Source: Candidatus Heimdallarchaeum aukensis
Lineage (GTDB): Archaea; Asgardarchaeota; Heimdallarchaeia; Heimdallarchaeales; Heimdallarchaeaceae
DNA length: 64,000 nt
Assembly (NCBI GenBank): GCA_021513695.1
Contig: CP084166.1
Span: forward strand, 128,001-192,000
Reading direction: 5' to 3'
Part shown: one piece after another, positions 31,380 through 57,255 of the stretch
Position numbering within the stretch: the stretch's first letter is position 1
Layout: every line of letters starts with the position of its first letter
The notes under the pieces: generated by a model
The model's input: the letters and a program-made list of their open reading frames with translations, nothing else
What the model was told of the DNA's origin: nothing
The model's database searches: none
Program-made: the position numbers and the translations under genes

Positions 31380-32174
31380 TTATAGTTTTTTTATATATTC
31401 GATTATAGAATTAAAATTATTATTAGTTAGAGAAGAGTATACAATCAGATTTTTCTGTAAGAACGAAATTTCTTCCAGCTTTTTGCTTATTCTTTCAAAG
31501 TTTTTAGTTGTATTTTTAATATCACTTTTTGTTAAAATAAATGACATTCTAAGTTTATTCTCATCTTCAATTTTCTTCAGAATTGCAAAAATTCTTTCAT
31601 ACAAAGATTCTTTGTAGATAAAGCCATAGTCAAGAACAAAAAAGATCGCATCAAAGTTATTTTCGACTTTTTCATTTAGATAATATGAAATCAAATCCAT
31701 ATTTCCGCCAATTTCTGTAATTTTTAATTTTTTTCCAAGGAAATAAAATTGAGATGTGGAAATTCCGATATTATGAAGTTTAGTTCCCAAAAAAGCATTG
31801 TAATTTAATCTGTGAATAATACTCGATTTTCCACATTTACTAAAACCAATTAGTAGAATGTTGAGTTGTTTATTTTCCTTTCTTGAGATTGAATATTGTA
31901 CTTTGAATTGATTTTTTTGTCCAAAAGTAATTTTGGTAGAATATTGACCTAGAATTGAGCCTGTTGATTCAATTATTTTTCCAAAACCATCAAAAATGCT
32001 TATACCAAGAATAAATTCTTCAGGAATTTTTTCTAGGAGTTGAAGGAGAAGTGATTTGATAGATATTTGATTTTGTAAATAAAATGACAATTTGTTATGG
32101 AATTCATTATTTTGAACTATTTGTCTTAGCAACTGTGTGGCAATTGTATCTTCTTTCACGTTTATTAAGTTCAT
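31380..32174 (-). CDS. Ras-superfamily small GTPase with an N-terminal roadblock-like extension of about 100 aa
   Basis: G1 LLIGFSKCGKSSI (GxxxxGKS); G3-like ITEIGGN; G4 ILTKSD (N/TKxD). The N-terminal ILGISIFDGFGKIIESTG region resembles a roadblock core. Confidence 0.55.
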   Translation of the reverse strand: MNLINVKEDTIATQLLRQIVQNNEFHNKLSFYLQNQISIKSLLLQLLEKIPEEFILGISIFDGFGKIIESTGSILGQYSTKITFGQKNQFKVQYSISRKENKQLNILLIGFSKCGKSSIIHRLNYNAFLGTKLHNIGISTSQFYFLGKKLKITEIGGNMDLISYYLNEKVENNFDAIFFVLDYGFIYKESLYERIFAILKKIEDENKLRMSFILTKSDIKNTTKNFERISKKLEEISFLQKNLIVYSSLTNNNFNSIIEYIKKL

Positions 32175-36156: not shown

Positions 36157-37968
36157 ATGAAACAAGTTTTACTTCGAATTAATCTTTCTGATGGAACACA
36201 CAAAATTGAAACTATTCCCCAAGAGGTAAGTAGGCAGTTTCTCGGAGGAACAGGTTTTATTACTTACTTCCTTTATAAAGAAATCAAACCAAAGATAGAT
36301 CCTTTATCTGAAGAAAATAAGATAGTCATAGCTTCAGGACCTCTACAAGGAACAATTGTTCCTATTACTGGTAGATATAGCATTGGAACTAAATCTCCAC
36401 TAACAGGACTGTTTTTAGATACAAATGTGGGCGGTTTTGTAGGCCCTGAACTAAGGTTTGCAGGATATGATGTCATAATAATAGAAGGAATGGCAGAGAA
36501 ACCCATTTATATTTCAATAATTGATGATGTAATTTCAATTAAAGATGCATCATCATTGTGGGGTAAAACTACTCATCAAACAGAAGATAAACTTCGAGAA
36601 CTTGAAAATGAAGAAAGTATGCGAGTAATATCCATTGGCCCAGCAGGAGAAAATAAAGTTAAGATTGCTTGTGTTACTTCTGATAGGTTTAGAAACGCTG
36701 GAAGAGGAGGTTTAGGCGCAGTTTTTGGAAGTAAAAATTTGAAAGCCATAGGTATCAAAGGGAGTTCTAGACCCACAAATGGCAATAAAGAAGAATTAGA
36801 TAAAATAAGAAGAGGAATAATCAAAAGAGCTAAAACAGCAAAAGAGCATAAGCACCTACTTTATCAACATGGAACCAGCTGGTTAGTTGATATCGCCAAC
36901 CAATATTCTCAGTTTCCTACAAAGAATTTCCAGAGCGGGGTATTTGATAAACATGAGAAAATAAACCATAAAGCACTTGAAAAATATAAAAGAAAAAGAA
37001 GACCATGCTATAAATGTGTGATTTCTTGCTCTGAGGTTCTTGATGCTTCTTCTTTTGATTGGACAGATGAAGAATTTATTGCCAAACCCGAATATGAAAC
37101 TTTAGGATTAATTGGAGGAAATTGTGCAATTGATGATCCAGAAACAATAATCAAAGCAAATTATAGATGTAATGAATATGGTTTAGATACAATTTCAACA
37201 GGAAGCATAATTGCAATGATTATGGAGGGAGTAGAAAAAGGGAGAATTAAGGAAGAAGAATATCAAGATATTAGATTTGGAAATAAAGAAAAACTAATGG
37301 AACTAATTGACAACATTGCTTATCGCCAAGGTATTGGAGATTTTCTCGCTGAGGGACTGGTAGATGCTGCTAAAAAGTTTAATACTGAAGATTTAGCAGT
37401 ACATACAAAGAAGTTACCATATGCAGCTTGGGATCCAAGAGGAAAATTGGGTCTAGGTCTAAGTTATGCCACTGCAGCTGTCGGTGCAAGTCATTTAAGA
37501 GGTTGGCCATCAACAAGCGACATTCCTGACAAAAGTGCAGTATCAGTCATTGATTCGTTAATAGAGCAACAAGATTTGAAGACTTTAAAAGATAGCTTGA
37601 TCATATGCCATTTCACACATAGTATCAGCCCAGCATTAAATATTGATGATTGCCACAAAATGGTTGAAGCAGCGTTTGATGAAAAATTTGAGAGAGAAGA
37701 GATAATTAACATCGCAAAGAGAGTTTGGATACTTAAAAGAATGTTCAACATTAGAGAATTTAAACCAAACAAAGCTAAAGAATTTGATAAATTACCTCCA
37801 AGATTTTGGGAACCAATGCCTGAGGGAAGAGCAAAGGGAATGAAAGCTTTTATCTCTGAAGAAGATTTCAATAAATCTCTATTGGCACTATATGAAAAAC
37901 GAGGTTTAGATGAGTTGGGAGAACCTTTACCATCTACTATTTCCAAATTGGATCTTGATAAGATATAA
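36157..37968 (+). CDS. aor: tungsten-containing aldehyde:ferredoxin oxidoreductase (AOR family)
   Basis: The N-terminus RINLSDGTHKIETIPQEVSRQFLGGTGFITYFLY...SGPLQGT and the overall 603-aa length match the AOR family. Confidence 0.85.
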   Translation: MKQVLLRINLSDGTHKIETIPQEVSRQFLGGTGFITYFLYKEIKPKIDPLSEENKIVIASGPLQGTIVPITGRYSIGTKSPLTGLFLDTNVGGFVGPELRFAGYDVIIIEGMAEKPIYISIIDDVISIKDASSLWGKTTHQTEDKLRELENEESMRVISIGPAGENKVKIACVTSDRFRNAGRGGLGAVFGSKNLKAIGIKGSSRPTNGNKEELDKIRRGIIKRAKTAKEHKHLLYQHGTSWLVDIANQYSQFPTKNFQSGVFDKHEKINHKALEKYKRKRRPCYKCVISCSEVLDASSFDWTDEEFIAKPEYETLGLIGGNCAIDDPETIIKANYRCNEYGLDTISTGSIIAMIMEGVEKGRIKEEEYQDIRFGNKEKLMELIDNIAYRQGIGDFLAEGLVDAAKKFNTEDLAVHTKKLPYAAWDPRGKLGLGLSYATAAVGASHLRGWPSTSDIPDKSAVSVIDSLIEQQDLKTLKDSLIICHFTHSISPALNIDDCHKMVEAAFDEKFEREEIINIAKRVWILKRMFNIREFKPNKAKEFDKLPPRFWEPMPEGRAKGMKAFISEEDFNKSLLALYEKRGLDELGEPLPSTISKLDLDKI

Positions 37969-37974
37969 TTTGAA

Positions 37975-39738
37975 GTGACAAATATGGAAAGGAAAATAAA
38001 AGAAGAAGTTGAAGAATTTCTGAATTTAGAACCGAAAGAACAAATAAGTATCGTTCAAAATCAATGCGAAGAAGTAATTTCACAAATAAAAGAAAAAAAT
38101 GTTGACTTGGAACATTTCATATACCAAGTAACAAAATTCAAAACTTTTTTTTCTCTTTTAAGTAAAGTAAGAAGGATTTATAGAAAAGAATACTTTGATC
38201 TTGTAGTTAATACATTAGCTAAACTTTGGTATGCTGTCGAAAAGTGCCAATCTCAAAAGTTGCTTTACCCTACTTTATCCGCTTTTACAGAAGTATTTTC
38301 CAAACTCAAAGGGTTAAATCCGTACTTTACTTTAGAAGCTTGTATAAATAAAACAATCTCATACAGTTTACTCCCCTCAATTGTAGAGTTAGAGATTCTT
38401 CTATCAAAAGAAAAGCAACATCTTCAATTTCTTCTTGACTATTTTCAGTTAGAATCAGTTTTAAAGCTAGTAGAAAAAGAAGAAGAAAAAATAACAATAA
38501 TACAATCAGCAACAAATTACATTCAAACACTAATTTTAACCTTATACAATTTCCTTTTTACTATTCCTAATCTGAAAAAAAAGGACTTTATTTCATGGTA
38601 TAAATTATTTGAAGAAGCGTTAAGCAAAGCTATCTCAACACATAAACTACTACTAAAACAAGAACTTTCAGAGATAAATAAATTTAGGACACTTCTATCT
38701 AAATCCTCACTCCATTCTATAAAAGCACAACTATTACTACTTTGGATAAAGTTTCTAAACGAAAAAAATGAAGAGAAGTTAAATCTAGCCTTAATGGAAA
38801 ACACACAGGCCATGCAAACAATCGAACACCTGCTCGATAATTCAATATATAAAGAAAATGTTAAACCCTATTATTTCCAGTATAAAACATTATTTTTGGA
38901 AACACGATTTTATCAGTTACTACATAATTTTGTAAAAAGCCAGTTTAGAAATGATTTACGTGTAGGAGATATAAAAGATGACAAAAAATCTTTATCTCTT
39001 AAAAATCTTAAATTCCAAGTAGATGAAATATTGAATGAAATATGGGAATACATAAGTGAAATACAAACAAAGGGAGACGACAGTATTATTGGAGTTTCCT
39101 CAAATATGATAAACACTTATGCAAAAGTATCTTATGGAGCTTACATTTACGAAATAAGAGAGAATATAGAGCAGATGGAACAAATAATAAAAACAAGAAG
39201 ATTGGATATTAGCGACCCTGAGCTATCTCTCATGTTAGGAAATTATTGGTTGATGAAATGGGGAGAAAATAACGAAAATAATCGAAAATATCTAGAATTA
39301 GCTGAATCTTATTTCACACGAGCAGCAGAAATTTATCAAATATTATTTAACAACAAAAAACTTCCAATATATGCATTTAGCATTTCAGGACTAATTTCGT
39401 TAAGACAAAATAATCCTCCGAAAGCAGAAGTCTTTTTCATGAAAGCAGATGATGTATTTAATGATGCTAAATATGCAGAAATATTAAATGAATCAGAGAT
39501 ACTATACTATACAAAATTTAGAGAGCAAATTGATAGAATATTGAACAATGAAAAAATAAAAAAACCATTAAGATTTAATAAACCTTTTAACCCACTAGAT
39601 TTCAACACATGGACAATAGAAAAAAAAGACTGGAGAAAAAAGTTTTCTTATATTGCAGAACCATTTCCATTTCATTTAACACAATTAAAAATACATGAGT
39701 TTGAATTTATGAGCCCAAGAAAGGAGAACGAAGAATGA
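37975..39738 (+). CDS. hypothetical all-alpha (TPR-like) protein, probably co-transcribed with aor
   Basis: Starts 6 bp after the aor stop. 587 aa of helical, low-similarity sequence. Confidence 0.35.
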   Translation: MTNMERKIKEEVEEFLNLEPKEQISIVQNQCEEVISQIKEKNVDLEHFIYQVTKFKTFFSLLSKVRRIYRKEYFDLVVNTLAKLWYAVEKCQSQKLLYPTLSAFTEVFSKLKGLNPYFTLEACINKTISYSLLPSIVELEILLSKEKQHLQFLLDYFQLESVLKLVEKEEEKITIIQSATNYIQTLILTLYNFLFTIPNLKKKDFISWYKLFEEALSKAISTHKLLLKQELSEINKFRTLLSKSSLHSIKAQLLLLWIKFLNEKNEEKLNLALMENTQAMQTIEHLLDNSIYKENVKPYYFQYKTLFLETRFYQLLHNFVKSQFRNDLRVGDIKDDKKSLSLKNLKFQVDEILNEIWEYISEIQTKGDDSIIGVSSNMINTYAKVSYGAYIYEIRENIEQMEQIIKTRRLDISDPELSLMLGNYWLMKWGENNENNRKYLELAESYFTRAAEIYQILFNNKKLPIYAFSISGLISLRQNNPPKAEVFFMKADDVFNDAKYAEILNESEILYYTKFREQIDRILNNEKIKKPLRFNKPFNPLDFNTWTIEKKDWRKKFSYIAEPFPFHLTQLKIHEFEFMSPRKENEE

Positions 39739-41208: not shown

Positions 41209-42174
41209 CTATTCTCCCAAATTTTTTCTCCAGTTGTAATCTTCTTTTGCTATCAGTGTAACAGCAGAATCTTCTTTTGAATCGATGATTTTTAATTCTG
41301 TATTTTCTATAATCTTCTTTGAAAATTCTAGTATTTTTGGGTACCTTGGCATTATTTCATAAGGTAACCTTTTTCTTGCGTCTCCAACACTCATAAAACC
41401 TTTTACTTCTAGAAAATGAGCTTCTGATCTTAAAAATAATTCAGCAAAAGCTTCTGGTTCGACTAAATTGTAGTTTTCATCTACTAAAGTTAATCTTATA
41501 ACTTTTCTAGTGTTAAGCGAAGGAAGTAATTCAATTGTTTCCATCACTTTGTTCCATAGATTTGAAAAAGAAGGACGAGCAGTTTTTTTGAAACTTTCTT
41601 CAGTAGGGGCAATTAGAGTAACATAGAGTTGAGTAGGAAGAGGGTCAAGTTTCTTCAACATTTCAGGATTAGTGCCATTAGTTACTAGAAAAGTAGTCAT
41701 ATCACGATTGTGGAACTCTTGAATTAATTCTGGTAACAAAGGATAGAAAGTTGGTTCTCCACTTAAAGAAATTGCAGCATGTTTTGGATTGTAAGCTTCT
41801 TCATATAATCTTGGTTCTACTTTTGGATGATTTTTGAATCCTGCAATTAGTCTTCTTTGATGTTCTATCATTTGATCAATAATATATTCCGGTTTGTCAA
41901 CTTTTCCTCTCATTAATTCTTTGTTGTACCATGATGCACTTCTCCAGCAAAAAACACATTTTAGATTACACCATATTGTTGCAGGAGTACATTGAAGACA
42001 ACGGTGAGAAGCTATTCCGTAAAATTGTTGTTTATAGCAAAAACCTTCTCCTTTTAACGCGTGCTTTAACCAGGTGCAAATTTTTACTGCAGAGTGATTA
42101 CCAGCTATTCTGTACTGTTGTTTTTCTAGTTTGTCTTTCAATTTTGGAGGAATAATGTTTGTATTTAAACTCAT
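41209..42174 (-). CDS. taw1: tRNA 4-demethylwyosine synthase (Taw1/TYW1), radical SAM
   Basis: HSAVKICTWLKHALKGEGFCYKQQFYGIASHRCLQCTPATIWCNLKCVFCWRSASW matches archaeal Taw1, including the CxxxCxxC cluster. Confidence 0.8.
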   Translation of the reverse strand: MSLNTNIIPPKLKDKLEKQQYRIAGNHSAVKICTWLKHALKGEGFCYKQQFYGIASHRCLQCTPATIWCNLKCVFCWRSASWYNKELMRGKVDKPEYIIDQMIEHQRRLIAGFKNHPKVEPRLYEEAYNPKHAAISLSGEPTFYPLLPELIQEFHNRDMTTFLVTNGTNPEMLKKLDPLPTQLYVTLIAPTEESFKKTARPSFSNLWNKVMETIELLPSLNTRKVIRLTLVDENYNLVEPEAFAELFLRSEAHFLEVKGFMSVGDARKRLPYEIMPRYPKILEFSKKIIENTELKIIDSKEDSAVTLIAKEDYNWRKNLGE

Positions 42175-42301
42175 TAGATTTACTTATTTTTCTTTATTTT
42201 TAGACTTTATCTTTATTGAAATTTTTTTTGATTAAATTTACTATAAAATTAACAAAGGAAAACAATAGATTAAAATATTTAAAAAATTAAAATATACTGA
42301 T

Positions 42302-43417
42302 ATGGTTAGTATTAAAAAAGTTCTCAAGCAACTAGAAGATTCTGATCCTATAGTTCGAAGAGATGCAATACTTACTCTTGGAGAACTAAAAGACGAAAAA
42401 GGGGTTGATCCTTTAATTAAGTGTGTTCAACAAGAAATAAAAGAAAATAGAATCACCGCTATTGTTGCACTTTCAGATATTGGAGATCATAGGGCTATTG
42501 AAATATTAATCTACTGTTTAATGGATGATGATGAAGAAATAAGACTTGCTGCTGCTCGAGCTTTAGGACGATTTACTTCTCCTCAAGCTATCACTACTTT
42601 ACTTGTTTCATTAAAAAAAGACCCAAGTGTGAGAGTTAAGAGTCGTGCAGCTCTATCTTTAGGGAGTATTGGTTCAGAACTGCCTGTTGAAGAATTACTT
42701 AAAGAATCTAAATTAGAACACCCAACCACTCTTCTTTATTCTATAAATTCTGCTTTGACAATGATAGCAAAGAAAAATGGTTATAGTTCAGTAGATGAAC
42801 TTGTTCAAAAAATAAGGGCTAAAAAGGCAGAAGTAGATGAGAAAACACCAGAGCATAAACAAATTCAGGAGAAAGAAGAGCTCGAATCTTTTCCTCGTTT
42901 ATATGACTACATTAGAAAATATGTAGCTCGAGAACTAGAAGGGGTACAAACAGTATTAAGTATTAACTCAGATGAAAAGACTGCATCAAAGAAAATAGCT
43001 GATATTTTAGCAGAAAAATTCTGGAAATTTGCTGAATGGATCGGAAAAAGAATGGGACATAAATTAACTGAATATCAATCTGATTTGCTCTGGCAGATGA
43101 TATGGGATACATCAAGGCCAATTAGAAATGAAATTTACCAAATGATAAGAGATCATCGCTCAGAATTAGAGGAATTAAATCGATTCCAGAAATGGCTCAA
43201 CAAAATAGAAGAACAAAAAGAAGAAGAAATCGTTAAAGATATTGAAAGAAGCAGACCTAAACCCATTATTCAAACTTCAAATAATGTGAAAAAAGACGAA
43301 GCAGAGACAATTAGAGCTGCAGATTTGGCAAGAAGTATTTCTTCAAATCTTGAAGAAATAATGGGCAAATATTCTAGTTGGAAAACAAGAGAGTTAAAAG
43401 ATGAAGAAGATTATTAA
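42302..43417 (+). CDS. HEAT (PBS-lyase-type) repeat protein
   Basis: Repeats: DPIVRRDAILTLGELKDEKGVDPLIKCVQQ / NRITAIVALSDIGDHRAIEILIYCL / DEEIRLAAARALGRF / VRVKSRAALSLGSIGS. Confidence 0.55.
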   Translation: MVSIKKVLKQLEDSDPIVRRDAILTLGELKDEKGVDPLIKCVQQEIKENRITAIVALSDIGDHRAIEILIYCLMDDDEEIRLAAARALGRFTSPQAITTLLVSLKKDPSVRVKSRAALSLGSIGSELPVEELLKESKLEHPTTLLYSINSALTMIAKKNGYSSVDELVQKIRAKKAEVDEKTPEHKQIQEKEELESFPRLYDYIRKYVARELEGVQTVLSINSDEKTASKKIADILAEKFWKFAEWIGKRMGHKLTEYQSDLLWQMIWDTSRPIRNEIYQMIRDHRSELEELNRFQKWLNKIEEQKEEEIVKDIERSRPKPIIQTSNNVKKDEAETIRAADLARSISSNLEEIMGKYSSWKTRELKDEEDY

Positions 43418-43569
43418 GCTTCTTTAAAATTCTGAAAATTGCCAAAAAAATTTTTCTAAAACAATTTTTTATTATTTATTAATTTTCGTAATACCTTGCT
43501 AATACTAAATCCTTCACGACAAAAACATATTTATTTCTGTTTACAATTGTGATATAGTAGATATCTAAG

Positions 43570-43779
43570 ATGGAATATGGGGTTAATATGAAAAAAAAGC
43601 TGATTACATTTAAAGTAACAGAAGCTATGATGAAATGGATAGCAGAAATGATGGAAAAGGGGAATTATAAAAATAGAACAGAATTAATTGTAGATGCTCT
43701 TAGAGAGTTTCTCATCCAAGAAAGAATGGTTGAAGATCAGGAAGAACTAGAAGCAATTTTTGAAAGAATTGATGAATAG
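43570..43779 (+). CDS. ribbon-helix-helix (CopG-like) DNA-binding protein
   Basis: 69 aa. KLITFKVTEAMMKWI is a beta-strand followed by two helices (NRTELIVDALREFL), the typical RHH layout. Confidence 0.45.
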   Translation: MEYGVNMKKKLITFKVTEAMMKWIAEMMEKGNYKNRTELIVDALREFLIQERMVEDQEELEAIFERIDE

Positions 43780-43821
43780 TTCTCTTATAACTCCTTCTGT
43801 ATTTCTGTTATTTTAGCCCTA

Positions 43822-44629
43822 TTATTCAAACCAATACATAGATGTTTTTTCGAAACATTCTTTTGTTAAATTTTGTGAAAGCTTAAAATAATTAGTAACT
43901 TTTTTATCTATCCTTTTTCTGAAAATCACTGCTTGATTAAAATCTCTATCTGATTTTATCCAGTTTTTTGTAATTTCTTTCATTGTTACCCAGATATCAG
44001 AGGAAGGAAAAGGGATTGGTATCTCTCTAAAAAGGTTTGAAGTTATGTCTCTTACAATAAAACTTTCTACTATAAATTGAACAAATGAGGAGGAAAGATA
44101 ACCAAACAACCCATAAAGGTCTATTTGTTCATCAGGAATTATGATGTCAAAAATGTCGTTTACGTAATAGCCTTCTAGGTCCAAACCAATAAAATACTTC
44201 TTTCCTCTATTTCTACGGACTATTTTTGGTTTTTCAAATATTTGATGATCTCCTGGTGCTCCTAATACTTTTCTGTCATAAATTATTTTTTCTTTTCCTG
44301 GAAAAACTTCAAAGTTTATGACACCTTCTTTGTAATTATTTGAAAAGATATTGTGTCTTACTATTTCTACAGATTTAATTTCATTTGAATATTTCTTTTT
44401 TTTAATATACTTCTCTTTGTATCTCTTTGTTATCGTTAATCCTCGTCTAATAAAAGAATGTTCTTTTAATTTAGGGTAATTATTCAGGATAGTGCTGATT
44501 TCCTTTTGACTTTCAGAACTAAAATTTGAAAAAAGAAAAAGAGGAGGGAAAATGAAGCTATAGTCTATTTTGTGTTCATGATTATCTTTTCTTTTATGAA
44601 ATTTAATGTAATTACTTTCGTTTTTTAAA
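43822..44629 (-). pseudogene. 3' fragment (about 269 codons) of the N6-adenine DNA methyltransferase gene, truncated at the tandem-duplication junction
   Basis: Nucleotide-identical to 47170..47977. The copy is cut at 44629/44630, where it abuts internal Taw1 sequence. Confidence 0.6.
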
Positions 44630-45524
44630 AATCGATGATTTTTAATTCTGTATTTTCTATAATCTTCTTTGAAAATTCTAGTATTTTTGGGTACCTTGGC
44701 ATTATTTCATAAGGTAACCTTTTTCTTGCGTCTCCAACACTCATAAAACCTTTTACTTCTAGAAAATGAGCTTCTGATCTTAAAAATAATTCAGCAAAAG
44801 CTTCTGGTTCGACTAAATTGTAGTTTTCATCTACTAAAGTTAATCTTATAACTTTTCTAGTGTTAAGCGAAGGAAGTAATTCAATTGTTTCCATCACTTT
44901 GTTCCATAGATTTGAAAAAGAAGGACGAGCAGTTTTTTTGAAACTTTCTTCAGTAGGGGCAATTAGAGTAACATAGAGTTGAGTAGGAAGAGGGTCAAGT
45001 TTCTTCAACATTTCAGGATTAGTGCCATTAGTTACTAGAAAAGTAGTCATATCACGATTGTGGAACTCTTGAATTAATTCTGGTAACAAAGGATAGAAAG
45101 TTGGTTCTCCACTTAAAGAAATTGCAGCATGTTTTGGATTGTAAGCTTCTTCATATAATCTTGGTTCTACTTTTGGATGATTTTTGAATCCTGCAATTAG
45201 TCTTCTTTGATGTTCTATCATTTGATCAATAATATATTCCGGTTTGTCAACTTTTCCTCTCATTAATTCTTTGTTGTACCATGATGCACTTCTCCAGCAA
45301 AAAACACATTTTAGATTACACCATATTGTTGCAGGAGTACATTGAAGACAACGGTGAGAAGCTATTCCGTAAAATTGTTGTTTATAGCAAAAACCTTCTC
45401 CTTTTAACGCGTGCTTTAACCAGGTGCAAATTTTTACTGCAGAGTGATTACCAGCTATTCTGTACTGTTGTTTTTCTAGTTTGTCTTTCAATTTTGGAGG
45501 AATAATGTTTGTATTTAAACTCAT
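44625..45524 (-). CDS. taw1: Taw1/TYW1 second copy; the last ~22 codons are replaced by junction sequence
   Basis: Identical to 41280..42174 up to the duplication junction. The C-terminus reads ...KIIDF* instead of ...KIIDSKEDSAVTLIAKEDYNWRKNLGE*. Confidence 0.6.
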   Translation of the reverse strand: MSLNTNIIPPKLKDKLEKQQYRIAGNHSAVKICTWLKHALKGEGFCYKQQFYGIASHRCLQCTPATIWCNLKCVFCWRSASWYNKELMRGKVDKPEYIIDQMIEHQRRLIAGFKNHPKVEPRLYEEAYNPKHAAISLSGEPTFYPLLPELIQEFHNRDMTTFLVTNGTNPEMLKKLDPLPTQLYVTLIAPTEESFKKTARPSFSNLWNKVMETIELLPSLNTRKVIRLTLVDENYNLVEPEAFAELFLRSEAHFLEVKGFMSVGDARKRLPYEIMPRYPKILEFSKKIIENTELKIIDF

Positions 45525-45649
45525 TAGATTTACTTATTTTCTTTATTTTTAGACTTTATCTTTATTGAAATTTTTTTGATTAAATTTACTATAAAATTAA
45601 CAAAGGAAAACAATAGATTAAAATATTTAAAAAATTAAAATATACTGAT

Positions 45650-46765
45650 ATGGTTAGTATTAAAAAAGTTCTCAAGCAACTAGAAGATTCTGATCCTATA
45701 GTTCGAAGAGATGCAATACTTACTCTTGGAGAACTAAAAGACGAAAAAGGGGTTGATCCTTTAATTAAGTGTGTTCAACAAGAAATAAAAGAAAATAGAA
45801 TCACCGCTATTGTTGCACTTTCAGATATTGGAGATCATAGGGCTATTGAAATATTAATCTACTGTTTAATGGATGATGATGAAGAAATAAGACTTGCTGC
45901 TGCTCGAGCTTTAGGACGATTTACTTCTCCTCAAGCTATCACTACTTTACTTGTTTCATTAAAAAAAGACCCAAGTGTGAGAGTTAAGAGTCGTGCAGCT
46001 CTATCTTTAGGGAGTATTGGTTCAGAACTGCCTGTTGAAGAATTACTTAAAGAATCTAAATTAGAACACCCAACCACTCTTCTTTATTCTATAAATTCTG
46101 CTTTGACAATGATAGCAAAGAAAAATGGTTATAGTTCAGTAGATGAACTTGTTCAAAAAATAAGGGCTAAAAAGGCAGAAGTAGATGAGAAAACACCAGA
46201 GCATAAACAAATTCAGGAGAAAGAAGAGCTCGAATCTTTTCCTCGTTTATATGACTACATTAGAAAATATGTAGCTCGAGAACTAGAAGGGGTACAAACA
46301 GTATTAAGTATTAACTCAGATGAAAAGACTGCATCAAAGAAAATAGCTGATATTTTAGCAGAAAAATTCTGGAAATTTGCTGAATGGATCGGAAAAAGAA
46401 TGGGACATAAATTAACTGAATATCAATCTGATTTGCTCTGGCAGATGATATGGGATACATCAAGGCCAATTAGAAATGAAATTTACCAAATGATAAGAGA
46501 TCATCGCTCAGAATTAGAGGAATTAAATCGATTCCAGAAATGGCTCAACAAAATAGAAGAACAAAAAGAAGAAGAAATCGTTAAAGATATTGAAAGAAGC
46601 AGACCTAAACCCATTATTCAAACTTCAAATAATGTGAAAAAAGACGAAGCAGAGACAATTAGAGCTGCAGATTTGGCAAGAAGTATTTCTTCAAATCTTG
46701 AAGAAATAATGGGCAAATATTCTAGTTGGAAAACAAGAGAGTTAAAAGATGAAGAAGATTATTAA
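45650..46765 (+). CDS. HEAT repeat protein (duplicate of 42302..43417)
   Basis: Identical protein sequence. Confidence 0.55.
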   Translation: MVSIKKVLKQLEDSDPIVRRDAILTLGELKDEKGVDPLIKCVQQEIKENRITAIVALSDIGDHRAIEILIYCLMDDDEEIRLAAARALGRFTSPQAITTLLVSLKKDPSVRVKSRAALSLGSIGSELPVEELLKESKLEHPTTLLYSINSALTMIAKKNGYSSVDELVQKIRAKKAEVDEKTPEHKQIQEKEELESFPRLYDYIRKYVARELEGVQTVLSINSDEKTASKKIADILAEKFWKFAEWIGKRMGHKLTEYQSDLLWQMIWDTSRPIRNEIYQMIRDHRSELEELNRFQKWLNKIEEQKEEEIVKDIERSRPKPIIQTSNNVKKDEAETIRAADLARSISSNLEEIMGKYSSWKTRELKDEEDY

Positions 46766-46917
46766 GCTTCTTTAAAATTCTGAAAATTGCCAAAAAAATT
46801 TTTCTAAAACAATTTTTTATTATTTATTAATTTTCGTAATACCTTGCTAATACTAAATCCTTCACGACAAAAACATATTTATTTCTGTTTACAATTGTGA
46901 TATAGTAGATATCTAAG

Positions 46918-47127
46918 ATGGAATATGGGGTTAATATGAAAAAAAAGCTGATTACATTTAAAGTAACAGAAGCTATGATGAAATGGATAGCAGAAATGAT
47001 GGAAAAGGGGAATTATAAAAATAGAACAGAATTAATTGTAGATGCTCTTAGAGAGTTTCTCATCCAAGAAAGAATGGTTGAAGATCAGGAAGAACTAGAA
47101 GCAATTTTTGAAAGAATTGATGAATAG
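46918..47127 (+). CDS. ribbon-helix-helix protein (duplicate of 43570..43779)
   Basis: Identical protein sequence. Confidence 0.45.
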   Translation: MEYGVNMKKKLITFKVTEAMMKWIAEMMEKGNYKNRTELIVDALREFLIQERMVEDQEELEAIFERIDE

Positions 47128-47169
47128 TTCTCTTATAACTCCTTCTGTATTTCTGTTATTTTAGCCCTA

Positions 47170-49161
47170 TTATTCAAACCAATACATAGATGTTTTTTCG
47201 AAACATTCTTTTGTTAAATTTTGTGAAAGCTTAAAATAATTAGTAACTTTTTTATCTATCCTTTTTCTGAAAATCACTGCTTGATTAAAATCTCTATCTG
47301 ATTTTATCCAGTTTTTTGTAATTTCTTTCATTGTTACCCAGATATCAGAGGAAGGAAAAGGGATTGGTATCTCTCTAAAAAGGTTTGAAGTTATGTCTCT
47401 TACAATAAAACTTTCTACTATAAATTGAACAAATGAGGAGGAAAGATAACCAAACAACCCATAAAGGTCTATTTGTTCATCAGGAATTATGATGTCAAAA
47501 ATGTCGTTTACGTAATAGCCTTCTAGGTCCAAACCAATAAAATACTTCTTTCCTCTATTTCTACGGACTATTTTTGGTTTTTCAAATATTTGATGATCTC
47601 CTGGTGCTCCTAATACTTTTCTGTCATAAATTATTTTTTCTTTTCCTGGAAAAACTTCAAAGTTTATGACACCTTCTTTGTAATTATTTGAAAAGATATT
47701 GTGTCTTACTATTTCTACAGATTTAATTTCATTTGAATATTTCTTTTTTTTAATATACTTCTCTTTGTATCTCTTTGTTATCGTTAATCCTCGTCTAATA
47801 AAAGAATGTTCTTTTAATTTAGGGTAATTATTCAGGATAGTGCTGATTTCCTTTTGACTTTCAGAACTAAAATTTGAAAAAAGAAAAAGAGGAGGGAAAA
47901 TGAAGCTATAGTCTATTTTGTGTTCATGATTATCTTTTCTTTTATGAAATTTAATGTAATTACTTTCGTTTTTTAAATCCATTGATAACAAAAAGAATTC
48001 ATTGGAAACGTCTTTAAAGGAATAATCTAAATCTGTGTAAATTTCTACATCATATCTATTATCTTTGAGGTGTTTTCTCCATTTCTTGCCATAAGTATCA
48101 GTTATGATACCTGAAGGTAATATTAATCCTACTTTCTCTTTGGATAAACTTTCTGCAATGATCAAAAAAGGTAGAGCAAAATTATATTTTCCAAAGATTC
48201 TATTTTTATAAGGTTCTCTCTTTAAGAATTCTTTATATCTATTATTTATTTTTTTATATTCTATCCACGGTGGATTTCCAATAACAAAATCAAAAAATTT
48301 TTTCTGAAGACTTAAACTTTCATCAAAAAATATTTCAGGCAAATCAACAAAAAAGCTAAATTTGGATAGAGAAGGATATTTCTTCGATATTTCATCTCTT
48401 TTTGTTAAACATTCTTTTATATCTTGAAAAGAAATTTCTTTTTTACCAAATATCACTTCTCTTCTTTTTTCACGAAGTATCGCTAAAAGTTTCAAAAAAG
48501 TTGTATTTTTTCTTTCTGACATTTGCTTTATTATTCTTTCATCATAACCAAGAATGCTATCTCCGTATTTTGAGATTAAAGGAAGTAATTTTCTTTTTCT
48601 ATTATCTTGTAACATGAAAAAGAGTTTGAAAACTTGAAATTCATAAATAAATGGATCAACTTCAACTGAATATGGCATAATCTCTTGTTTTTCAAAAGCT
48701 GGGTAGAGAAAATCTCCTATTCCTGAAGAAATATCGATAACTGTTTTAGTTTTTTTAGAATTGTTACTCAAAATATCTAATAAATCATATACCTTTTTAA
48801 CAAGAATCCTATTAGTAAAATATTGACCTGTTAATCTCGTTTTATCTTGAATAAGTGATAAAATATTAACTTCATTTATTGTCTTGATTATATTTTTGAT
48901 TTGTTCAAAAACCCAAACTGGTAACTTTTTTTCTAGAACTCTGAGTTTTTCTAACGATAGAAGTATTTGCTTATCATCTTGATTTAGATTAACCAGATTT
49001 ATTAACGAAGTTTTTTGTTGATTTTGTTCAGATGAAAAGGATGAAGAATTGTAAATAAAGTAAAACTTTACTATCATCGATTTTAATTCATTAACTGAAA
49101 CTTTGTACCTACTAGCCTTTTTCTGAATTCTACTATGTAGATTTTCCTCTTTTATTTCCAT
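47170..49161 (-). CDS. N6-adenine (amino) DNA methyltransferase, gamma-class Eco57I/TaqI-like
   Basis: Motif X-like GQYFTNRILVKKV; motif I VIDISSGIGDFL; motif IV FVIGNPPWIEY; motif downstream of IV, GLILPSGIITDTYGKKWRKHL. The C-terminal ~330 aa are a probable target-recognition region. Confidence 0.7.
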   Translation of the reverse strand: MEIKEENLHSRIQKKASRYKVSVNELKSMIVKFYFIYNSSSFSSEQNQQKTSLINLVNLNQDDKQILLSLEKLRVLEKKLPVWVFEQIKNIIKTINEVNILSLIQDKTRLTGQYFTNRILVKKVYDLLDILSNNSKKTKTVIDISSGIGDFLYPAFEKQEIMPYSVEVDPFIYEFQVFKLFFMLQDNRKRKLLPLISKYGDSILGYDERIIKQMSERKNTTFLKLLAILREKRREVIFGKKEISFQDIKECLTKRDEISKKYPSLSKFSFFVDLPEIFFDESLSLQKKFFDFVIGNPPWIEYKKINNRYKEFLKREPYKNRIFGKYNFALPFLIIAESLSKEKVGLILPSGIITDTYGKKWRKHLKDNRYDVEIYTDLDYSFKDVSNEFFLLSMDLKNESNYIKFHKRKDNHEHKIDYSFIFPPLFLFSNFSSESQKEISTILNNYPKLKEHSFIRRGLTITKRYKEKYIKKKKYSNEIKSVEIVRHNIFSNNYKEGVINFEVFPGKEKIIYDRKVLGAPGDHQIFEKPKIVRRNRGKKYFIGLDLEGYYVNDIFDIIIPDEQIDLYGLFGYLSSSFVQFIVESFIVRDITSNLFREIPIPFPSSDIWVTMKEITKNWIKSDRDFNQAVIFRKRIDKKVTNYFKLSQNLTKECFEKTSMYWFE

Positions 49162-49243: not shown

Positions 49244-51307
49244 ATGTCTCATATATTGAAGCAAAATGTAAAGATACCCAAAGAAATACTCCCATTCTAT
49301 AAATTATTTAATGATTATGAGAAAGAACAATTTCAAAAATTGTCATCTTTAAACCAAATGTCTAATTTAAATGAAATAGGTACATTATTGTTAGATATCT
49401 TTAATAAAGAAATTGAACACACTTCATATTTTATGCTTGCTCTTGGCAGAATATTATATCATACTTCAGATATGTTAAATCTTGAAAATATCTATAAAGA
49501 AACCGATTCTGCTGAAATAGGGTTATGGTACGCTTTCTTGAGAATTATTAGTTCAGACGATGTACGAAAGGAAGAAATTCTATTAGATCAACTGAAAGAA
49601 AAACTAAATTATTCCTTATTGCACCTTCTTTGGACTATTGTTGAGCTTAATTTTTATGTATATTCAGGAAATCAATTTAATTTTAGAGAAACTAAAGATA
49701 TTATAATTAATCGTTTTTTAGTTGAAGATATCGAAAATAGAGAAAAACATAAAGTGATTTTCAAGCTTTTTTATTCATATATTTTAATTATAGAAATAAA
49801 TTTGAATTTTCTACAGAATCACATTTCATATGCTAAAGACCTACTTATCCATGCTTCTGATATTATAGTTACTTTAGAAGATAGGATTTTAGAGTCGATG
49901 CAACTTAGATTATCTGCATTAATTGAGTTAAGAAAAAACAACTTTTCAACAGCTCAACATCTATTTTTACGTTCTCTTGCTCTCGCAGATATGTTAAAAG
50001 AAATAAGATTTGCAATACAAGTTAATTCAGAAATTGGAGACCTATATCTACAGATGGGCCATGTTAAAGATGCAAAATTGTTTTACGATAAATCACTAGA
50101 GCTTTTAAAAAAGCATGTACCTTATGATTCTTCATTGCAAGGCATTCTACTTTCTAAGATTGCTGATTACTATTTTGTGAATGAAAAGTTTCAAAAGTCT
50201 CTAGATTTGCTTGATGAAGCTCTTTCATTCTTTAAAGTAGATAATAATTTTTCATTTCAGATCAAACTCAAATACATTGAATATCTTTTAAATTTGAAAA
50301 AAGTTAATAAAGCAGAATCTTTGTTGGTTTCAAGTTTTCAAAAGAAAGACAATTATCTTTATTTGCAGAATCAGAGTTTTTGCCTGTATTTAAGAGGATT
50401 TATTGAATTTCTTAAGAAGAATTTTGGTAAAGCCCAGTCTTTCCTCTATGAGGCAATAGGGATTGCAGATAGAACAGGAGATGAATGGACCAGTTCAAAA
50501 TCTTTAGTTCTTCTTTTAATTTTGCTTCTTCTAAAGTATAACTTAGCTTCAAAAGTAGACGATATAGTAGAAGCAGACAAGTGTGTAGATGATATAATTA
50601 CATTTTTAGAAGAAAAAGCGAAGTTTAAAGAACTTGCTCAGATATATCTAATTCGAGCTAAGATAAGAAAAATACTTCTCGACTTTGAGACTTCACTTTT
50701 TTTACTGAAAACAGGAGAAAATATAGCTAGACAGTATTATCCTGAACTTATTACTAAATATGAAGAAAATATTGATGAGATTTCTAGACTCTTAAATTTT
50801 GAAAACATTGCAGAGACAGAAACACCCTCCATAGATTTCAAGGAAGATATTGACACAATTTTTCAAATTCTTATCAGACAGACTAAAAAACTTGGTTCTC
50901 CAATAGAAAGTATTACAATAGCCGTACTTATTTTTCATTCAAGCGGTATACCAGTTCGGACTTATCGTTCTGAAGAGCTCTATATTAGTGATGATATGAT
51001 CTTTGGTGGTTTTGTGTCAGCAATAAGACATCTGCTTGATGAATTGTTCTATTCCCAAGAATCAAAGTCTTTAAGTGTTGATCATGGACAGTACAAGCTT
51101 CTAATTGAGTTTTACAAGAATTTATTTTCTATTGTTATTCTTACTGTTCGAGATAGCTTCTTGTTACGCAGAAAGATGCATCAATTAGTTAGTTTTGTAG
51201 CTTCAAAGGATCTGTTCAAAGAGAAATATTTTGGTAAAATTGATGAACTTGCTTTGAGAGACATTGATTCATTTGTTGAGAAGTTGTTTAAAGTCAAAAA
51301 GAATTAG
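49244..51307 (+). CDS. TPR-repeat protein with a C-terminal roadblock/LC7-like domain
   Basis: Central TPR-like helices. The C-terminus ITIAVLIFHSSGIPVRTYRSEELYISDDMIFGGFVSAIRHLLDEL...YKLLIEFYKNLFSIVILT fits the roadblock pattern. Confidence 0.5.
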   Translation: MSHILKQNVKIPKEILPFYKLFNDYEKEQFQKLSSLNQMSNLNEIGTLLLDIFNKEIEHTSYFMLALGRILYHTSDMLNLENIYKETDSAEIGLWYAFLRIISSDDVRKEEILLDQLKEKLNYSLLHLLWTIVELNFYVYSGNQFNFRETKDIIINRFLVEDIENREKHKVIFKLFYSYILIIEINLNFLQNHISYAKDLLIHASDIIVTLEDRILESMQLRLSALIELRKNNFSTAQHLFLRSLALADMLKEIRFAIQVNSEIGDLYLQMGHVKDAKLFYDKSLELLKKHVPYDSSLQGILLSKIADYYFVNEKFQKSLDLLDEALSFFKVDNNFSFQIKLKYIEYLLNLKKVNKAESLLVSSFQKKDNYLYLQNQSFCLYLRGFIEFLKKNFGKAQSFLYEAIGIADRTGDEWTSSKSLVLLLILLLLKYNLASKVDDIVEADKCVDDIITFLEEKAKFKELAQIYLIRAKIRKILLDFETSLFLLKTGENIARQYYPELITKYEENIDEISRLLNFENIAETETPSIDFKEDIDTIFQILIRQTKKLGSPIESITIAVLIFHSSGIPVRTYRSEELYISDDMIFGGFVSAIRHLLDELFYSQESKSLSVDHGQYKLLIEFYKNLFSIVILTVRDSFLLRRKMHQLVSFVASKDLFKEKYFGKIDELALRDIDSFVEKLFKVKKN

Positions 51308-51389
51308 TTATTTATGCTCATAAAAAGTTTTTTCTTTTAGACGTAACAAGATAATATTTTTAAGAATAGTAAATATAATGTAAATAAGA

Positions 51390-53474
51390 ATGTCAGTAGT
51401 ATACAGTTTCCCTAGGGAATATAGTCATTATATCCCTCTTTTCACTAGAGAAGAACAAGATTTGATTAACAACTTTTCATCAAAAGTTAATAAAGATACT
51501 TCAATGGGAATCTTGAAAGATATCCTTTTAGATATTTTAGATAATCTTTCTTCCCCTTCTCTCTATTTCTTATACTCACTAGGTAAAGTTTTATTCATTT
51601 CTAGTAATTATAATCTACTTGAAGAACTCAATAAGAAATATAAAAGTGAGAGTTTAGAGCTGTGGTGGGGAAATGCTCTAATAAGGCGAACTGAGAATGA
51701 TAAAGTAATTAATCTCGCTTTGAAAATACTCAACAAGAATCCTGAAGAAAAAATAATTAGATTACATTGTTATGCCCTTTTAGCTAATGCATATGCAAAT
51801 ATGGAAAGTGAAAATCAATATAGACATTATATGCAAGAACTCTATCATGAGTCAATTATCTTTCATAGAGATTTAGATAAAGAAAAAATTGTAATAAATG
51901 ATATCCTTCTTTTTGCACATGCTATTGACATTTGGAAAGAGAGAATATCTGCACCTCTTTTAAAACTTGAAAACAAAATTGATGTAGCTTTTCAAATTGC
52001 AAAAGAACTAGGAGATCGTTATCACCTTGGAAGGTTGTACAACATAAGAGGAGTAATTTACAGATATGTAGGAAGAATCTCTGATTCATTTGAATTTATA
52101 AATAAGGCTATAAATTATTATAAAGCAGTTGGAGCTAGGAGAGGAGTAGCAGCAGCAAAAGCAAATCTTGCAACAATTTATACAATTAAAAATGAACTAG
52201 ATAAAGCCGAGAAATTACTAAAAGAGTCTCTCTCAATTTTTTTGGAAGTAGGTGATTACAAAAATCAATCCTTAATTCACTCTTCTTTAGGTGAAATTGC
52301 TATTGCTAAAGGAGATTATCACTCTGCTTTAGAATTGTATGAAGAATCTGTAAGTATATTGGAGCAAATAAACGCACACGAACTACAAGTTTATTGCTCT
52401 TTAGGCGAATTATATTATTTCTTAGGAAATAAAGAAAAAATGAAAATAATAATGAAATTCCTGCAAGAGACAGACAAAAAGAAAGAAGGATTCGTCTATG
52501 GATATTATAATTTGTTTAAAGCTCTTTTAGAAATTGATAACATGAATTATGGTAAAGCAAATGAATACTTGGAAAAAGCTTTGTCTATAAGTGATACAAG
52601 AGGAACAGGATTTTTCTCTGCAAAAATACTTCTTCAACTGTCATTGATCAACATAAAGCAATATGATTCTTTTCAAGAAAAGGAGTATTTAGAAAAAGCA
52701 AAACAGTACATAAATGATTTAGAACCATTTTATGAAGAGTTGAATAAAACAATTGAACATGTAATAATTCTATTGGTTCTTTCAAAAATATATGCAGTAA
52801 TGGAAGAATATACGAAGTCTTTTAACATTTTACAAAAAGCAAAAGATCGTCTTAATTTGTCAAAGAAAGAAAGAAAAAAGGATAAATATTACCACTTAAT
52901 AGAAAATAGAATTAAAGAACTTGAAGAAATCTTTTCAAAAGCCAAAACCGAAACATCATTCCAAAATGAAACTTTTCAATATGAAATTAAAGAAATGGAA
53001 AGTATAAGCATTAGACAAATATCAGAATATGAAAAAGAATTAAGAACTTCAATATTGGCACTTTTAATAGTACATCCTTCAGGAATACCTTTAATGAATT
53101 ATACGCTCAAGAGGTCTAGTCAATTTAGAGATGAACTAATGTTTGGAGGTTTTATTGTAGCTGTAAAAGACATGATAGAAGAGTTATTCTCTAATCCAAT
53201 GCAGAGTAAAGTAATGGTCATTAGCTATGGTAATAATAAGATAATAATGGAGCACAGTCCAAAGAGAAATTTTAGTGTAATTATTTTATCATCAAAGGAT
53301 AGTTTTATTCTACGAAGAAAAATTCATCGATTAACTCAAAATCTACAAGATATAGAGCTCCCGCAACAGTATATTGGAGAATTGACCCCTAAAACAGCTT
53401 CAAGAATAAATGAAGAAGTAAAAAATGTTTTTGGAGAAAACTTAATGCTATATGAAGGTGCTGTTCATATTTAG
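51390..53474 (+). CDS. TPR-repeat protein with a C-terminal roadblock/LC7-like domain (paralog of 49244..51307)
   Basis: Clear TPR units (NLATIYTIKNELDKAEKLLKESLSIFLEVGDYKNQSLIHSSLGEIAIAKGDYHSALELYEES). The C-terminus TSILALLIVHPSGIPLMNY...LMFGGFIVAVKDMIEEL...NKIIMEHSPKRNFSVIIL is roadblock-like. Confidence 0.5.
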   Translation: MSVVYSFPREYSHYIPLFTREEQDLINNFSSKVNKDTSMGILKDILLDILDNLSSPSLYFLYSLGKVLFISSNYNLLEELNKKYKSESLELWWGNALIRRTENDKVINLALKILNKNPEEKIIRLHCYALLANAYANMESENQYRHYMQELYHESIIFHRDLDKEKIVINDILLFAHAIDIWKERISAPLLKLENKIDVAFQIAKELGDRYHLGRLYNIRGVIYRYVGRISDSFEFINKAINYYKAVGARRGVAAAKANLATIYTIKNELDKAEKLLKESLSIFLEVGDYKNQSLIHSSLGEIAIAKGDYHSALELYEESVSILEQINAHELQVYCSLGELYYFLGNKEKMKIIMKFLQETDKKKEGFVYGYYNLFKALLEIDNMNYGKANEYLEKALSISDTRGTGFFSAKILLQLSLINIKQYDSFQEKEYLEKAKQYINDLEPFYEELNKTIEHVIILLVLSKIYAVMEEYTKSFNILQKAKDRLNLSKKERKKDKYYHLIENRIKELEEIFSKAKTETSFQNETFQYEIKEMESISIRQISEYEKELRTSILALLIVHPSGIPLMNYTLKRSSQFRDELMFGGFIVAVKDMIEELFSNPMQSKVMVISYGNNKIIMEHSPKRNFSVIILSSKDSFILRRKIHRLTQNLQDIELPQQYIGELTPKTASRINEEVKNVFGENLMLYEGAVHI

Positions 53475-55809: not shown

Positions 55810-57255
55810 ATGGAGGCCGTCGTCAAAACCTTGAAAGTGAGAATAAAGAATGAGGTATTGACGACAAGGAAGAAGGAAAGGTTAAGGAGAATAACAGGAA
55901 GAGATACGAGAATAATAGAAAAGTATGTGAGAATAATACACCAAAATAGAAAAAAAATATGTATAAGAACTAAAAAAGGGAAAATAAGAGTACATAGAGG
56001 AAAATTAGACGATTTAACATTAACTACTTCAAGAGTAAAAGAAGAAGAGAGGAGAAAGACTTTTCCTCACGACCTTAAGAAAATGTTCCCCTATTGTTCT
56101 CACAATGAGTTTCAAGAGTGTAGAGATATAGCTGTACAACTATATAAACAATGGTATAGACCTAACACCACTCGTCCTCCAATAAAGAGAGCGAGAAGAC
56201 AACTAATTAATGGAAAGAGGTTCATCCTCATCCATCTACCAAAAGAAAAGAATAACACTCTCACTCGTTGGTGGGTAGGAATAAGAGACTCGTTAGACAC
56301 TTGGAAAAGAAATACCCCCTATCATCAGAAGTTGTGGTTACCTTTAGAGATGAGCGATTTCCACCAGAAAGAGTTAAAAAAAGGACAGATAAAAGGTCTA
56401 GAACTGCGATACAAACGTTCTACAAGTGAGTGGTGGGTATATTTTCAACTAAAAGTTCTTCCTCCTTCTTCTTTTCTAAGCGATAATTCCTCTTCTTCTC
56501 TTCCTCCAGCTGTGCTGGGAATAGATCTGGGGATAAACATTCCTGCTGCAGGAGTGTTACTAACCCCTAAAAAGAAGTTAACTATTAAACAGATAAAATT
56601 CTAGTATACCAAACAGTGGAATATAATCAATCATAGATATAAACTCAAACTTTCCCGTCTTCAGAGGAAAGCGGCTTTAAACGACCAGTCGGGTAAAAAA
56701 CACCAAGTTTATCGTTTTCTTGGTCTTCTTCGTCGGAGATATAGAAACGTTAAACTGGCGTATATCCACCAATTTGTAAACGATGTTGTGCGGACAATAG
56801 AGACTTATGCACAAGTGTATGACCTTTTCGTCGTCGTAGGTTATCCTAAACATATCCGTGAAGAGAAAGGAAAAGGGAAAGTTTCTCGTCAATTTCGCAG
56901 AAAACTTCATCAGTGGAACTATGCTCTTGTTCTTGGTCTTCTCCGTCGGGCATTAATATTAAGAGGTTTCGAATCTCACCGTATTCTCACTTTAGACGAA
57001 AGAGGAACATCCTCTCACTGTTCTCGTTGTGGAACGAAAGTCTCTCGCCCTGTCAGAGGGTTAATCTCTTGTTCTTCTTGTAATTACACTTTCCACTCTG
57101 ACCTCACAGGAGCAATGAATATCGCTCGAAGGTTCCTTGGTCATCTTTTCCGTCCTCGTGCAACAACTATTACTGACCACCTTACTGGCTATAAATTCAG
57201 TCTCACCCATTTCACTGTTTGCCAAGGGCTCAGCCATTGGTTGCAGTCCCAGTAG
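55810..57255 (+). pseudogene. tnpB: tnpB (RuvC-like RNA-guided nuclease of the IS605 family) interrupted by a single in-frame TAG at 56602-56604
   Basis: ORF 55810..56604 and ORF 56788..57255 are in the same frame, with an open frame from 56605. Total length 1446 nt = 482 codons. RuvC-I is LGIDLGINIPAAG; the zinc finger is CSRCG...CSSCN; RuvC-III is FHSDLTGAMNIARR. The N-terminus is basic. Confidence 0.75.

Follow-up and report, generated by a model that had tools for sequence, protein, structure and literature searches.

The window analyzed here, a 64,000-nucleotide stretch of Candidatus Heimdallarchaeum aukensis DNA (contig CP084166.1), contains two adjacent genes, A and B, whose products (p1 and p2) each join a tetratricopeptide repeat (TPR) solenoid to a C-terminal domain that, in AlphaFold2 (AF2) models, has the longin rather than the Roadblock fold. 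Together with a third paralog, C, these genes form an A-B-C array in Heimdallarchaeota, and we propose that the TPR-longin paralogs assemble by their longin domains into a docking platform, a reading to which we give a probability of roughly 0.4. In the structural and genomic description of the family itself we have high confidence. The domains are familiar ones; what is new is their conserved architecture and the gene organization, as part of the longin expansion of Asgard archaea.

An initial annotation had described two adjacent proteins of about 690 amino acids (aa) that are tandem paralogs of common architecture, and both the open reading frames (ORFs) and the paralogy hold up. Sequence comparison identifies p1 and p2 as clear paralogs, with 26% identity over 422 aa (BLASTP, E = 1e-32) and, in tblastn, separate similarity at the N-terminus (aa 8–106, 28% identity) and over the C-terminal ~145 aa (33% identity, E ~ 1e-21); the C-terminal domains themselves are 31–33% identical. 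Because the same tandem order is seen again in at least 20 independent Heimdallarchaeota contigs, the pair is far from a chance arrangement. The p2 protein, which contains all four motifs quoted in the initial annotation (LIVHPSGIPL, LMFGGFIVAVKDMIEEL, IIMEH and FSVIIL), is identical to P0001 of Ca. H. aukensis, whose genome has been described (PMC8813620). No third copy was detected by tblastn within the 64-kb window, and an ORF of similar size at 17113–19200 (-) was rejected as one, as it carries metallo-beta-lactamase-type motifs and has no similarity to p1 or p2.

The C-terminal domain had been described as a Roadblock-like unit of about 100 aa. A domain is indeed present in this position and its structural neighborhood had been recognized correctly, but it spans ~135 aa in the AF2 model and its predicted fold is a different one. 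In gene B the elements are β1 (555–561), β2 (567–573), α1 (582–600), β3 (608–613), β4 (616–623), β5 (628–634), α2 (639–652) and α3 (667–684), a five-stranded antiparallel sheet in the longin order β1-β2-α1-β3-β4-β5-α2-α3, and p2 ends ~7 residues past α3. Two independent AF2 runs agree on this ββ-α-βββ-α-α order; the isolated domain was modeled with a predicted local distance difference test score (pLDDT) of 75 and a predicted template modeling score (pTM) of 0.75, and full-length p2, modeled from 32 relatives, reached a pLDDT of 87.2 and a pTM of 0.84. Roadblock proteins have an α-ββ-α-βββ(-α) topology, with an N-terminal helix packed against the sheet and no more than a single helix after it at the C-terminus (PMC10933270), whereas two C-terminal helices without a packed N-terminal helix mark a longin (Tran et al. 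2024, PMC10933270). The helix that precedes the domain in p2 is a linker, separated from it by residues 546–552 with pLDDT < 50, and cannot be assigned with confidence to the globular domain; this, with the two confident C-terminal helices, does not fit the Roadblock/LC7 (PF03259) topology. The closest solved structures are likewise longin domains and not Roadblock proteins.

Neither Robl_LC7 nor V4R, which the initial annotation had wished to see excluded, nor any other Pfam model matched the C-terminal domain of p1 or p2, in the full proteins or in isolation, at E ≤ 10, and no PDB sequence matched p1 or p2. A V4R/TRAPPC3-like domain is further disfavored by the absence of V4R/Bet3 structures among the neighbors, and the adaptin-type HEAT/ARM solenoid with a Clat_adaptor_s-type longin that characterizes an AP/COPI-F half-complex was not found. 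A 45-member family profile compared with the PDB gave weak matches to Bet5/TRAPPC1 (E = 2.6e-4), dynein Roadblock (E = 4e-3 to 1e-2) and MON1A (E = 0.086), the first two because the ββ-α-βββ core is common to both folds. When the 45 domains were scanned singly, Fuz_longin_1 was the most frequent weak match (11), with Intu_longin_1 matching 4, Sybindin 3 and Longin 1; Robl_LC7 matched 4, all sub-threshold (best E = 3e-3). A sequence link to a curated family is provided by type C, whose domain scores 20.6–29.1 bits against Fuz_longin_1, exceeding the 26.1-bit cutoff in two of the four proteins tested (27.2 and 29.1); a precomputed match to the same model is recorded in 9 of 31 type-C proteins, and no other Pfam family is exceeded at its cutoff by any family member. 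Like p1 and p2, the other A and B types tested have no match to Fuz_longin_1, Intu_longin_1, Sybindin or Longin. A hidden Markov model (HMM) built from A and B only matches every one of the 14 type-C domains, the five best at E = 2.5e-17 to 9.3e-14; with hhalign, A/B and C align from β1 to α2 at 95.3% probability. A Roadblock call would have led to the wrong family, and the database label reads only 'tetratricopeptide repeat protein', to which public annotation of the wider family adds only 'hypothetical protein'.

The N-terminal ~500 residues form a TPR solenoid, in agreement with the multiple TPR units initially reported. TPR_12 and TPR_2 exceed their curated Pfam cutoffs in both proteins (34 bits against 30.1 and 31 bits against 27 in gene A; 65 and 35.5 bits in gene B), and the model shows a superhelix of helical hairpins. 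What had been taken for a distinct N-terminal helical region is, in the AF2 model of p2, merely the start of this one continuous solenoid. Its best matches are peptide-binding TPR superhelices (NprR/Rap/AimR, LGN/Pins, APC/C Cdc16/Cdc27), aligned over at most ~400 of the 694 residues (403 for separase 9hvy_A, 293–297 for the top matches), and in sequence the segment most resembles the arrays found in CHAT- and STAND NTPase-domain proteins.

Among the species genomes of GTDB, a scan recovered 25 loci, every one of them in Heimdallarchaeota; in these the genes lie on the same strand with short spacers throughout and in the fixed order A (~681 aa), B (~696 aa) and C (~671–676 aa). The array is complete in 12 loci and reduced to B-C in two; A-B only is seen in the window and in L001, L002, L003 (Ca. 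H. endolithica, 95% identity), L007 and L014, and in the remaining loci it is cut by contig ends. Scores within a type (737–841 bits) far exceed those between A and B (167 bits) or between A/B and C (about 20 bits), and gene A groups with the first array gene in all Heimdall loci (within-type mean 776 versus 167 bits), which indicates that the three types diverged long ago and have each been conserved on their own. The ortholog of gene A in L001 is P0117 (L001:7833-9875); for full-length p2, a word-indexed search returned a single ortholog, P0002, at 55% identity, all other matches being confined to the TPR region. The array sits in a conserved gene order, HEAT (+), a 173-aa gene (-), a methyltransferase (-) and A B C (+), followed beyond C by a 626-aa gene (-), MFS-PhoU_div (-), GT87 (+) and an RNA methyltransferase (-). 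In Ca. H. aukensis, type C is P0274 (666 aa, 43% identical to the type-C query), which lies elsewhere on the chromosome, away from A-B, behind an 856-aa TPR protein without a longin domain and still adjoining an MFS-PhoU_div gene. At the end of its contig stands yet another TPR-longin gene, the fourth, of 641 aa (domain E = 6.5e-27), and the species thus has at least four family members.

Beyond the array, HMMER with the domain alignment recovered 123 proteins at E ≤ 1e-3, among them ~15 close relatives of 680–700 aa, ~20 more distant ones of 675–720 aa that carry the domain at their very C-terminal end, domains that stand alone, and giant proteins in which it occurs two or three times. The distant full-length relatives, 21–29% identical over 400–690 aa, belong to genomes of Lokiarchaeia type (Ca. 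Harpocratesius, Promethearchaeota) and of Hermodarchaeota, which makes the TPR-longin architecture Asgard-wide; on its own, the domain is found in Thermoplasmatota and DPANN archaea too. One of the giant proteins, P0132 (2171 aa), holds three copies, and receiver and DUF5915 domains are found as other partners among the relatives. In each of the paralogs A, B and C the longin domain is the most conserved part (0.82–0.90 in type-A orthologs), and it is this domain that is under the strongest purifying selection.

Table 1 Positions of the TPR-longin genes, their domains and associated features. Coordinates are those of the window unless preceded by a locus handle.
Feature	Position	Strand	Basis or remark
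Gene A (p1)	49244..51307	+	ORF, 687 aa; TPR-longin, type A (first array gene)
TPR units of gene A recognized by Pfam, aa 224-290	49913..50113	+	TPR_12, TPR_2
C-terminal longin domain of gene A, aa 545-685	50876..51298	+	Family HMM match, E=5.5e-42
A/B spacer, 82 bp, AT-rich	51308..51389	.	Read from sequence
Gene B (p2)	51390..53474	+	ORF, 694 aa; TPR-longin, type B
Alpha-solenoid of gene B (TPR type, continuous, ~26 helices), aa ~20-515	51447..52934	+	
Linker helix of gene B, aa 530-542, then low-confidence loop	52977..53015	+	AF2 model
C-terminal longin domain of gene B, aa 555-687	53052..53450	+	AF2 model
Eco57I/N6_Mtase/TaqI_C-type N6-adenine methyltransferase, divergent from gene A	47170..49161	-	Pfam
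P0274 locus	L028:2868-4868; L028:14344-14868 (-)		
Related methyltransferase of L030	L030:2883-4598		

Well-studied longins act in pairs, as in Mon1-Ccz1, Bet5-Trs23 (TRAPP), FLCN-FNIP, NPRL2-NPRL3 and C9orf72-SMCR8, and co-encoded paralogs are a typical genomic signature of hetero-oligomers. For these two reasons the most economical model is one in which the A-B(-C) paralogs would hetero-oligomerize through longin-longin pairing, an assembly that is, in our estimate, slightly less than an even bet. The paired longin surface would then offer a docking platform for a partner, for which a small GTPase is probably the best guess from precedent, and would act in recruitment or exchange rather than as an arginine-finger GTPase-activating protein (GAP), while the TPR grooves may hold extended peptide segments of clients or regulators. 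A direct small-GTPase partner we consider rather unlikely. The most specific form of the model, a heterotrimer of fused solenoid-longin subunits that serves as a GTPase-docking platform with peptide-binding arms, is improbable; if true, prokaryotes would have a relative or analogue of the TRAPPII/III, AP/COPI-F and Mon1-Ccz1-RMC1 longin-plus-solenoid assemblies, and Asgard archaea a precursor of trafficking-type GTPase regulators that is accessible to biochemistry.

The loops of the longin domain bear on its possible chemistry. Between β1 and β2 the family carries an S-G-[IL]-P motif with an invariant glycine (G565) and one residue between G and P. In the β4-β5 loop, p2 has SPKRN, its ortholog SPNKN and p1 YKNL, and PKG is seen elsewhere. 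FLCN R164 and NPRL2 R78 presumably map to this loop, judging from our own alignment of known sequences, and no conserved arginine of this finger type was found there across types A, B and C; the conserved arginines (LRRK) form the start of α2. In the longin-domain GAPs FLCN, NPRL2 and SMCR8 the loop that leads into β2 ends in a 'GP' motif (PMC12290439), and the motif set of FLCN/NPRL2-type longins, arginine finger included, is described in the same study. FLCN/SMCR8-type Asgard longins show both features, whereas the TPR-longins have G-x-P in place of GP and no conserved loop arginine. As the β4-β5 loop is not conserved, a FLCN/NPRL2-type GAP mechanism appears unlikely from the sequences.

Several observations weigh against the docking-platform proposal. 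Proteins p1 and p2 match none of the Pfam longin models, the β4-β5 loop is variable with no consensus in types A, B and C, and several genomes have no C beside A-B, leaving a strict three-subunit stoichiometry without guarantee. In the 386.6 kb of window and loci that we searched by jackhmmer with HRAS, ARF1 and the window GTPase, the surroundings of the array, out to about 8 kb, are free of small-GTPase genes; the lone small GTPase found is an Arf-like gene at 31380–32174 (-), 17 kb from the gene pair. Since Asgard GTPases generally lie outside operons with Roadblock/longin genes (Tran et al., PMC10933270), this absence is weak evidence. Finally, the longin-like domain is fused C-terminally to MFS transporters in 7 of 10 proteins tested and occurs elsewhere with PAS/HisKA and CARDB, and it may be a general interaction module. 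The MFS fusion set includes P0140, from a Lokiarchaeota metagenome-assembled genome, P0154, P0164, P0172, P0177, P0196 and P0233.

The MFS and PAS/HisKA fusions favor the main rival, a GTPase-independent sensor or adaptor in which the TPR part would serve as a receptor for a peptide or ligand, in the manner of the RRNPP regulators NprR, Rap, AimR and PlcR, and the longin domain an output or oligomerization module, possibly on membrane transporters or signaling proteins. The RRNPP-like structural neighbors of the TPR part are consistent with such a role, as are NPRL2-like longin fusions with two-component domains, which resemble the PAS/HisKA fusions (Liu et al., 10.1101/2020.10.19.343400). RRNPP proteins (NprR/Rap/AimR), LGN/Pins and APC/C Cdc16/Cdc27 share TPR_12-type repeats with the family, but none has a longin domain. 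We regard the sensor or adaptor role as rather unlikely. Much less probable is the original idea of a Roadblock/LC7 (MglB/LAMTOR-like) domain in GAP-like or adaptor regulators of small GTPases: MglB, LAMTOR2/3 and dynein DLRB do share with the TPR-longins a ββ-α-βββ core, weak profile similarity and the dimerizing GTPase-platform role predicted here, but the part of the idea that concerns the fold is largely refuted by the AF2 topology.

Least probable of all is a defense or epigenetic module made of the TPR-longin genes and the adjacent Eco57I-type N6-adenine methyltransferase. This methyltransferase is the divergent immediate neighbor of gene A, directly upstream of it, in 18 of 26 loci, and a related gene (N6_Mtase/MmeI/Eco57I/TaqI_C) recurs 3.4 kb upstream of a distant TPR-longin gene in L030, a Hermod/Promethearchaeota contig. 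The TPR segment moreover resembles the arrays of CHAT- and STAND NTPase-domain proteins, which are often defense-associated. PADLOC, on the other hand, returned no system model and only generic TPR (E ~ 1e-4) and MTase_II matches, no nuclease or NTPase partner is visible for the methyltransferase, and the conserved block holds housekeeping genes (TYW1, the HEAT protein, GT87, the RNA methyltransferase), as fits inherited gene order. Stable vertical conservation and strong purifying selection are also unlike mobile defense islands.

Comparable systems are known among eukaryotic longin proteins. The first longin of Mon1/Fuzzy/HPS1 (PF19036), which pairs with Ccz1/Inturned/HPS4, is the Pfam model whose cutoff type C exceeds, and the β1-loop-β2 motif of Mon1, (S/A)GKP, is similar to the SG[IL]P of the TPR-longins; the latter are also co-encoded paralogs, as expected for a longin heterodimer. 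However, the tri-longin RabGEF subunits (guanine-nucleotide exchange factors for Rab) have three longins per chain and the TPR-longin proteins only one, at the C-terminus; Mon1 and Ccz1 lack the ~500-aa TPR solenoid; A and B fall below Pfam detection; and a Rab partner or exchange activity is only putative for the TPR-longins. In TRAPP the longins (TRAPPC2/sedlin, TRAPPC4/synbindin, Bet5/TRAPPC1) have a separate solenoid partner, whereas the TPR-longins fuse both, their solenoid is canonical TPR of the NprR/LGN type, and no TRAPPC3/Bet3-type subunit is found in their neighborhood. FLCN, NPRL2 and SMCR8 carry a C-terminal DENN or NPRL2-specific domain, neither of which the TPR-longins possess. 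The Asgard Roadblock/longin expansion comprises 130 asCOGs, and in particular lineages its domains have been fused to GTPases, TRAPPC3, DENN and two-component domains (10.1101/2020.10.19.343400; PMC10933270; PMC12290439), and these families share both organisms and domain superfamily with the TPR-longins. The initial annotation did not recognize the fusion as a described family, and in the full-text literature that we searched, which did not extend to the asCOG tables, neither a TPR- or solenoid-longin fusion nor the three-paralog array is described.

Longin and Roadblock are among the most expanded 'eukaryotic signature' folds of Asgard archaea, and Heimdallarchaeia are placed closest to eukaryotes by some analyses; to our knowledge, almost no Asgard longin or Roadblock protein has a known partner or assembly state. 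Another Asgard longin fusion would be unsurprising to a specialist, but the A-B-C array is a rare case of a genome nominating the subunits of a putative longin complex and thus an unusually concrete candidate for one. It opens the questions of whether Asgard longins form heterodimers like Mon1-Ccz1 or TRAPP, which GTPase, if any, they engage, and what cargo the TPR arms would carry.

The GTPase of the window is a 263-aa protein with Pfam matches to Arf (29 bits, over the cutoff) and SRPRB, an N-terminal extension of ~95 aa and degenerate motifs (G1 GFSKCGKS, EIGG for DxxG, G4 TKSD). It is abutted by a 281-aa gene whose N-terminus gives weak matches, one to Robl_LC7 (E = 3.6e-3) and one to the family HMM of the TPR-longins (E = 3.6e-6), and together the two (30534–32174, -) look like a GTPase plus Roadblock/longin-like pair.

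Upstream of gene A, the window contains an exact 3,350-bp tandem duplication (41280–44629 and 44630–47977; 0 mismatches, 2 gap openings) that ends 1.27 kb before it. The duplicated segment covers two genes, one for a TYW1-like radical-SAM protein and one for a HEAT-repeat protein of 371 aa, and also the 3' part of the Eco57I-type methyltransferase, leaving a truncated TYW1 (44625–45524, 299 versus 321 aa) and a methyltransferase fragment ORF (43822–44184); it is either very recent or an assembly artifact. Downstream, at 55810–57255 (+), two consecutive ORFs of 264 aa (no Pfam match) and 155 aa (Cas12f1-like_TNB) look like a split TnpB/IS605-family gene. They lie just past the break in synteny with other Heimdall genomes, where C would be expected, which suggests a transposon-associated rearrangement.

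Two further genes of the conserved block, both without a Pfam match, are absent from the window. The 173-aa gene between HEAT and methyltransferase (L014:1563-2084(-), orthologs in 12 loci) shows by eye a longin-like pattern of strands and helices and a 'FDEEIGP' stretch that recalls the FLCN/SMCR8-type GP motif; it has no match among PDB sequences. The 626-aa gene downstream of the array (L017:7264-9144(-), orthologs in 16 loci) encodes an HExxH motif (MIHELGHSLGLPHPH) between a hydrophobic N-terminus and a hydrophobic segment near the C-terminus, and its product looks like a membrane-anchored extracellular zinc metalloprotease. Within the window, a 587-aa ORF with no Pfam match at E ≤ 0.01 (37975–39738, +) lies directly downstream of an aldehyde:ferredoxin oxidoreductase gene (36157–37968).

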